Positions 59,130-59,469 of a stretch of 64,000 nucleotides of DNA are shown in pieces. Location of the stretch: positions 24,986,001-25,050,000 of the forward strand of contig OX597840.1 in the NCBI GenBank assembly GCA_951406725.2. The letters run 5' to 3'. Both the position numbers and the translations under genes were made by a program. How positions within the stretch are numbered: the stretch's first letter is position 1; each line of letters begins with the position of its first letter. The notes below the pieces were generated by a model that saw only the letters and a program-made list of their open reading frames with translations, made no database searches and was not told where the DNA came from. The stretch comes from Octopus vulgaris. Its lineage: Eukaryota.

Positions 59130-59469
59130 ATAAAATACAAAATGGGACAAGAACACAAAACATCCGGACAGTTAGGTGATACAAAGAGGGACAACAAAAC
59201 ATCCAGATAGACGATGCAAAAAAATACAAGGACGGGTCATTCGAAGCTTTTTATCCTCAGTCAAGAACCGGATCATCCTCGCAATTTCGGCTGATTAATC
59301 TTGAGATTGCTCCAATCTGGCCAGCCCCAAGGAAAAACTAAGCTAAGAGCATTAGATTCCTTGAAAGAAAGCTTCGAATGTATACGAATACAAGGACGGA
59401 AAAACGGACGATGTTACACGAATATAAATACAATAAAATAATAATAACAGGACATAACAACAGGTGTCT

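Follow-up and report, generated by a model that had tools for sequence, protein, structure and literature searches.

We describe a high-copy repeat of the octopus genome that is probably the terminal repeat of a Naiad-type transposon and whose RNA would cut itself, after nucleotide C17, by means of a hammerhead of new topology. The repeat is about 340 nucleotides long and occurs twice, as copies A and B, in the 64,000-nucleotide stretch of Octopus vulgaris DNA analysed here (the window), animal DNA rich in microsatellites. Both copies have all 12 invariant hammerhead nucleotides as well as stems I, II and III. Stem II (GGCUG/CAGCC), however, is detached from the conserved sequence CUGAnGA: its 5' strand lies about 65 nucleotides upstream, and A9 runs directly into another helix. 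The same order of parts, spelled in different letters, recurs in Naiads, which makes it likely that the motif cuts transposon RNA.

How does this arrangement compare with the hammerheads already known? In the part of their report available to us, Eckert et al. (2023; PMC10085705) define six block orders, among them the non-circular order S-G-C. Block C consists of a stem I strand, CUGAnGA and a stem II strand, and is presumed to be uninterrupted; the insertions known after A9 are of one or two bases. Type SGC comes from metatranscriptomes only and has been shown to cleave. Type CSG is known from two metagenome sequences, and type GCS has one weak candidate, the only one of these RNAs not absent from the genomes of known organisms. 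The search patterns behind these finds demanded CUGAUGA(U)G, and a term search of the portion of the supplement available to us did not return 'Octopus'.

Anatomy of the split-core motif

In both copies the invariant core (C3 U4 G5 A6 G8 A9, G12 A13 A14, A15.1-U16.1 and H17) is complete. Stems I, II and III, with six, five and five Watson-Crick pairs, stand in register around it, stem II being closed by G10.1-C11.1, and the cut triplet is AUC. Read 5' to 3', the motif opens with one arm of helix X, followed by hairpin Y, the 5' strand of stem II, one strand of a helix between stems I and II (the interaction helix) and block S, which is a stem III strand, UC and a stem I strand. After a linker of five nucleotides come block G (the 3' strand of stem II, GAAA and a stem III strand), the other interaction strand, a stem I strand, CUGAnGA and the second arm of helix X. 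Coordinates are given in Table 1.

Table 1. Repeat copies and parts of the split-core motif, in window coordinates
Feature	Position	Strand	Basis or pairing
Copy A, high-copy repeat, ~340 nt	59130..59470	(-)	sequence; contig matches
Copy B, same repeat as copy A	61467..61796	(+)	pairwise comparison with copy A
Split-core hammerhead motif, copy A, 143 nt	59238..59380	(-)	pairing analysis, descriptor scan, fold
Split-core hammerhead motif, copy B	61585..61727	(+)	pairing analysis, descriptor scan, fold
Helix X 5' arm	59365..59380	(-)	pairs with 59238-59253
Hairpin Y, adjoining helix X on one side and stem II on the other	59327..59364	(-)	8-bp base
Stem II 5' strand, G10.1 at 59326, upstream of cut site	59322..59326	(-)	5 Watson-Crick pairs with 59289-59293
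Interaction helix (stems I-II) 5' strand	59314..59321	(-)	7/8 pairs with 59267-59274
Block S: stem III strand, U16.1 (59306), C17 (59305), stem I strand	59299..59310	(-)	pairing analysis
Predicted cut, copy A	59305/59304	(-)	after C17
Block G: stem II 3' strand, G12-A13-A14-A15.1 (59288-59285), stem III strand	59281..59293	(-)	pairing analysis
Interaction helix (stems I-II) 3' strand	59267..59274	(-)	pairing analysis, family variants
Stem I strand and CUGAGGA core: C3 59260, N7 59256, A9 59254	59254..59266	(-)	pairing analysis
Helix X 3' arm, begins immediately after A9	59238..59253	(-)	pairing analysis, fold
Copy B stem II 5' strand	61639-61643	(+)	pairing analysis
Copy B block S	61655-61666	(+)	predicted cut 61660/61661
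Copy B block G	61672-61684	(+)	pairing analysis
Copy B stem I strand and CUGAAGA	61699-61711	(+)	pairing analysis

The motif resembles type SGC, as described in the available part of PMC10085705, in its block order (S-G-CUGAnGA) and its two core pseudoknots. Its linkers of 5 nucleotides (S to G) and 14 nucleotides (G to C) fall within the SGC limits of 8 and 15, and it shares a helix in which a 3' extension of stem II's 5' strand pairs with the linker that precedes stem I. It differs from type SGC in that block C is broken between A9 and G10.1 and stem II has no partner 3' of CUGAnGA. Because stem II is not joined to CUGAnGA, the motif is none of the six orders defined there; judged by its sequence, the split layout can be derived from type CSG by circular permutation, with the opening placed between A9 and G10.1 inside block C. 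The preliminary description of this DNA had spoken of a permuted hammerhead. The permutation stands, with the correction that it is of the non-circular kind and has a break between A9 and G10.1. Moreover, the motif lies in animal genomic DNA, whereas types SGC and CSG come from metatranscriptomes and metagenomes, and neither copy fits the CUGAUGA(U)G pattern.

Stem II, helix X and hairpin Y together make up the favoured nested fold, with fold z-scores of -4.2 for copy B and -2.6 for copy A. The upstream strand GGCUG is given a pair probability of 0.98 with its partner in block G, and the base of hairpin Y reaches 0.91 in copy A and 0.99 in copy B. Helix X forms 14 of its 16 pairs in copy A and all 16 in copy B; its mean pair probability is 0.99 in the outer half and 0.54 in the inner half of copy A, against 0.98 and 0.95 in copy B. 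In copy B, X, Y and stem II adjoin without an unpaired linker, at pair probabilities of 0.95-0.99. This connectivity is that of a predicted four-way junction, whose stacking we infer. ViennaRNA cannot predict the three knotted helices, which are short: as isolated duplexes they come to -2.9 to -5.0 kcal/mol, and local hairpins rival them in the nested fold.

A descriptor scan for the six block orders and the split form returned copies A and B as the sole matches in the window. On 200 block-wise dinucleotide shuffles of the window it gave no split match and one type I match, a chance level that is optimistic because the descriptor was written after the element had been seen. Read as standard type I, II or III hammerheads, the window gave no descriptor match, and an HDV-like reading of both strands, made by eye, found no P1/P2 pairing. 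Rfam had no match in the window at the gathering score and no hammerhead family among 55 weak matches in 58500-62500, a miss to be expected of a knotted order, as the Rfam models are nested.

Variation between the copies and across the family

Copies A and B face each other 5' to 5' at a spacing of 2.2 kb and are 90% identical across 276 nucleotides (59447-59179 against 61516-61789). Copy A is flanked by (TA)n at both ends and has a T-rich 3' tail; an internal duplication in this tail (59163-59225) is absent from copy B and from several contigs. Alignment of the two 143-nucleotide motifs needs no gap and shows 11 differences. They are N7 (G in copy A, A in copy B), a base in a linker, another in a loop, one in the fourth helix and one at the foot of hairpin Y, with the other six in the closing helix X. 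The invariant core and stems I-III, 42 positions in all, contain none of the 11 (hypergeometric P=0.018). Stems I-III and GAAA are thus the same in both copies, as had been claimed from a first reading, and the N7, linker and closing-helix strings quoted in that reading agree with the sequence. So do its cut sites, with 3' products beginning at 59304 (minus) and 61661 (plus), as predicted positions.

The wider family shows the same pattern. Part of the stretch is present in 20 of the 24 sequencing runs listed, which carry four coded organism labels, with two small-share metagenome entries besides; two insect metatranscriptome entries (share 0.07) were left out of the family analysis. Four of the runs were compared with it; one, a raw-read run (X23), yielded no reads, and three contig sets gave 2073, 5412 and 7740 family matches, from which family depth was taken as the sum over contigs, not as copy number. 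Variants at or above 3% make up 58 entries, and the results that follow come from the 40 of these 58 that were listed, over the three contig sets. The 40 entries hold 21 variable motif positions, mostly in N7, the linkers, helix X and the interaction helix; two fall within the 42 constrained positions (P=0.022) and none at the 12 invariant nucleotides (P=0.14 taken alone). At N7, A accounts for 80-85% of family depth. Of the two variants at constrained positions, one retains a G.U pair, and the other (59282, 3-18%) costs stem III a pair if no matching change occurs in the partner. The interaction helix has four variants, three of which add a Watson-Crick pair: an A.C mismatch is mended by either of two of them (59318 and 59270), and a third converts G.U to C-G (59314). 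The fourth breaks a pair (59317, 12% in one run).

Selection on the fold, as proposed in the preliminary description, draws support from the comparison of the two copies, from the family variants and from the recurrence of the layout in Naiads. That description set against it a uniform spread of substitutions, G5, G8 and G12 included; no variant entry lies at these three nucleotides among the 40 of 58 listed. On the plus strand all three are C, and the tallies for each kind of change permit at most one unlisted C>T entry there in runs X9 and X8 and at most two in run X7.

Searches beyond these runs were negative. A 28-base pattern had no match in metagenome contigs and a 24-base pattern none in viral contigs. 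An 18-base pattern met 48 metagenome loci, which we put down to chance, none of them matching past 25 bases.

Hammerheads at the ends of Naiad elements

Naiads are Penelope-like elements that prefer (TA)n targets and form inverted copies; an insertion often contains a copy that is inverted and truncated at its 5' end (PMC8557442, in the part available to us). The same part of that paper, by Craig et al. (2021), reports no canonical hammerhead in Naiads and uses only the labels 'HHR_core' and 'HHR_half_core'. Eight Naiads are said there to have a half core, with the other half 35-50 nucleotides away on either side.

We read by eye the last 200-500 nucleotides of 41 of the 54 Naiad consensus sequences in File S5 of PMC8557442; the resulting tally is of 3' ends only, with pairings read by eye without a shuffle control or a covariation statistic. 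The split layout is intact, by eye, in 8 of these 41 ends, which represent six unrelated sequences from four phyla: the near-identical octopus elements Obim and Ovul, 4_Dst (ostracod), 3_Chem (hydrozoan), the near-identical coral elements Anas and Amil, 2_Movir (box jellyfish) and Plae (acanthocephalan). Stem II is always closed by a G-C pair, with its 5' strand upstream and no partner after CUGAnGA, and its letters vary (GACACC/GGTGTC, GACGCC/GGCGTC, GGCTCC/GGAGCC and GGGGA/TCCCC are among the examples). Stems I and III and the interaction helix likewise pair using different letters. Five split Naiads could be viewed in their upstream part as well: there Y runs up to G10.1 or stops one base short of it, and X sets in at A9 or one base beyond. 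Helices X and Y of Plae lie outside the passage viewed, and helix X is only about 3 bp long in Ovul. Partial split forms were seen by eye in Esco and Bfor.

The split form is not the only permutation in this collection. By eye, intact type-CSG hammerheads are present in 5 of the 41 ends (Hpol, Smim, 1_Nbra, 3_Nbra and Hcon), all from nematode and spider elements, which indicates that Naiads use this permutation family. Lpol and Sdum have the order S-G-C by eye, with some parts not clear-cut. In the remaining 24 of the 41 no hammerhead was resolved by eye within the 200-500 nucleotides viewed: Omin, Mley, 1_Chem, 2_Chem, 1_Dst, 2_Dst, 3_Dst, 1_Movir, Parc, Adux, 1_Skow, 2_Skow, 1_Pfla, Tama, CGi, Sglo, Olur, Mcor, Bpla, Mphi, Dcar, Ppac, Asuum and Mgal. 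Eight of these (CGi, Sglo, Olur, 1_Skow, 2_Skow, 1_Pfla, 1_Chem and 2_Chem) have in common another conserved motif of about 70 nucleotides, just past the stop codon or in the 3' end, in the sequence seen; it is possibly a different structured RNA or ribozyme. The end of 1_Movir contains a twister-ribozyme-like motif, judged against part of a twister alignment.

Does the window repeat itself belong to the Naiads? We infer that it does, from its sequence features. Like Naiads, as far as the available part of PMC8557442 describes them, the family has (TA)n targets, a T-rich 3' tail and inverted copies. The window repeat has (TA)n insertion, apparent 5' truncation and inverted copies, features not unique to Naiads. 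N7 is G in Naiads 3_Chem, 2_Movir and 1_Nbra as it is in copy A. The window's five-nucleotide S-to-G linker is spelled like the linker of Anas and like the last letters of the one in 2_Movir; Ovul has a similar linker after stem II. The family differs in sequence from Naiad_Obim and Naiad_Ovul, and exact-motif searches of the part of the PMC8557442 supplement consulted gave no hit. Pfam found no reverse transcriptase or GIY-YIG match in 86 of the 208 complex reading frames of the window; truncated copies would lack such a frame.

Cervera and de la Pena (2014) and Lunse (2017) reportedly deal with minimal type I hammerheads, those of canonical Penelope-like elements and of non-LTR retrozymes. 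The window repeat does not fit a non-LTR retrozyme, which consists of tandem repeats each with a type I hammerhead: it has two dispersed copies in the window, no 3'-to-5' joint among 15 of the 28 joints listed, and is not type I. With the canonical hammerheads of Penelope-like elements, as presented in the available part of a preprint (bioRxiv 10.64898/2026.07.22.740005), it probably shares a core placed in a Penelope-like terminal repeat. The canonical and retrozyme motifs described there are nested and of type I, often with a tiny stem III and arranged in tandem arrays; the window motif, in contrast, has stems of full size in a knotted order, and the window contains no tandem array of it.

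Several other repeats lie in the window. One family has two copies, at 47697-47885 (+) and 61797-61970 (+), with a mean column identity of 81%; the latter adjoins the 3' end of copy B. In this family GAAA precedes CUGAnGA, and when parts from both degenerate copies are combined they give the order G-C-S, a 7-bp interaction-like helix, a 3-bp stem III and a 4-bp stem I. It is a possible type-GCS hammerhead, complete in neither copy. A third (TA)n-inserted repeat, at about 12740-13570 (-), has three copies near 12760, 12996 and 13552 with a minimal type I hammerhead-like motif, degenerate in its core, of the kind seen in canonical Penelope-like elements. Between copies A and B a short frame at 60880-61120 (+), without a Pfam match, resembles what we take to be the C-terminal end of a CR1/L2-type LINE protein. 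The sole Pfam match in 86 of the 208 complex frames is a mariner (Mos1-type) transposase HTH fragment at 38926-39396 (-), with an E value of 6e-22.

Competing readings and the proposed mechanism

The fold may be real and inherited from Naiads and yet inactive here, a relic or a protein-binding scaffold whose core is kept for structure or by the youth of the family. Hairpin Y, with one variable loop base, changes as little as the core, so scarcity of variants does not single out catalytic bases. In the family majority, helix X has two U.U mismatches where it meets the junction, plus mismatches at 59373-59374. Cephalopod Naiads are described, in the available part of PMC8557442, as long inactive remnants, and the hammerhead of the Poseidon Penelope-like element needed protein for cleavage and was dispensable for insertion in vitro (PMC11167929, in the part available). 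This reading nonetheless seems to us unlikely: the catalytic bases, including the free N7 and H at position 17, are kept in unrelated Naiads of four phyla, among the ends viewed. That would be the pattern to expect of cleavage and not of a mere scaffold.

A reading that would keep the motif within a published topology can be given less weight still. The element could be an ordinary type SGC hammerhead with a five-nucleotide bulge after A9, in which the downstream GGCU (59248-59245) completes stem II and the upstream strand with helix X acts as an off-switch. Copy B and the family majority do have GGCU five bases past A9, with four possible pairs to AGCC. But at 59248 copy A and 18-32% of family depth show A instead, as do 10-21% at 59247, and it is the upstream strand of stem II that shows no variant among the 40 of 58 entries listed. 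The split Naiads viewed have no downstream partner at all, and the known insertions at this place, cited above from Eckert et al., are shorter. We regard this bulged form as improbable.

We would give very little credence to either of two further readings. The inverted pair may be what matters, with a read-through transcript forming a 276-bp duplex that is edited or silenced, and the orientation and identity of the copies, like the habits of Naiad insertions, would suit it. The preliminary description had raised double-stranded RNA and A-to-I editing, an idea that found no support here: A>G and T>C together make up 20 of 54 variants in the run guessed to be RNA, compared with 19 of 55 in one and 17 of 51 in the other of two runs of unknown kind, though this test, made on contigs only, is weak. 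Inverted neighbours are presumably to be expected in a high-copy family, and the duplex leaves the conserved core unexplained. As for a hammerhead-like match assembled by chance, post hoc, from short complementary words in a structured repeat, the stems are indeed short, the descriptor was fitted to the element and Rfam has no match, but the shuffles gave no split form, and the six unrelated Naiad sequences with the same layout have already largely refuted it.

How might a hammerhead with a broken block C work? In the mechanism that we propose for the self-cutting motif, the element would be a 5'-truncated or non-autonomous Naiad-type end. Helices X and Y would rejoin A9 to stem II across the break (A9/G10.1). 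Together with stem II and the G.A core pairs they would form a four-way junction, in which stem II stacks on the core and X on Y, and which may tolerate the backbone break where natural hammerheads often have a bulged U. The RNA is predicted to be cut after C17 in each copy. Two such cuts in tandem copies would release RNA of unit length, its ends still held by helices X, II and III together with the interaction helix, so that re-ligation to a circle would be favoured. As cleavage would leave both RNA ends in the grip of four helices, the split form may serve to circularise transposon RNA.

With rather less assurance than for the window element alone, we lean towards a broader view drawn from sequence comparison, that in various animal phyla Naiads possess active hammerheads of non-circularly permuted order, wired in at least two ways: as type CSG, and as the split core, in which a four-way junction replaces the A9-G10.1 link. 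These hammerheads may circularise RNA, and the second repeat family of the window may add type GCS. In the open full-text literature our search met no report of the split form or of permuted hammerheads in Naiads. The part available of the 2026 preprint on animal retrozymes (bioRxiv 10.64898/2026.07.22.740005) has type I models only, and that of another 2026 paper attributes alternative permutations to Eckert and Forgia alone.

If it cleaves, the split-core motif would be a seventh natural wiring of the hammerhead, which among small ribozymes is the best studied, and one that breaks a block held indivisible by the six-order scheme. Because Rfam and type I descriptors miss split RNAs, many more of them may be uncounted. 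Cleavage would also move non-circular hammerheads from anonymous metatranscriptome and metagenome contigs into the genomes of animals.
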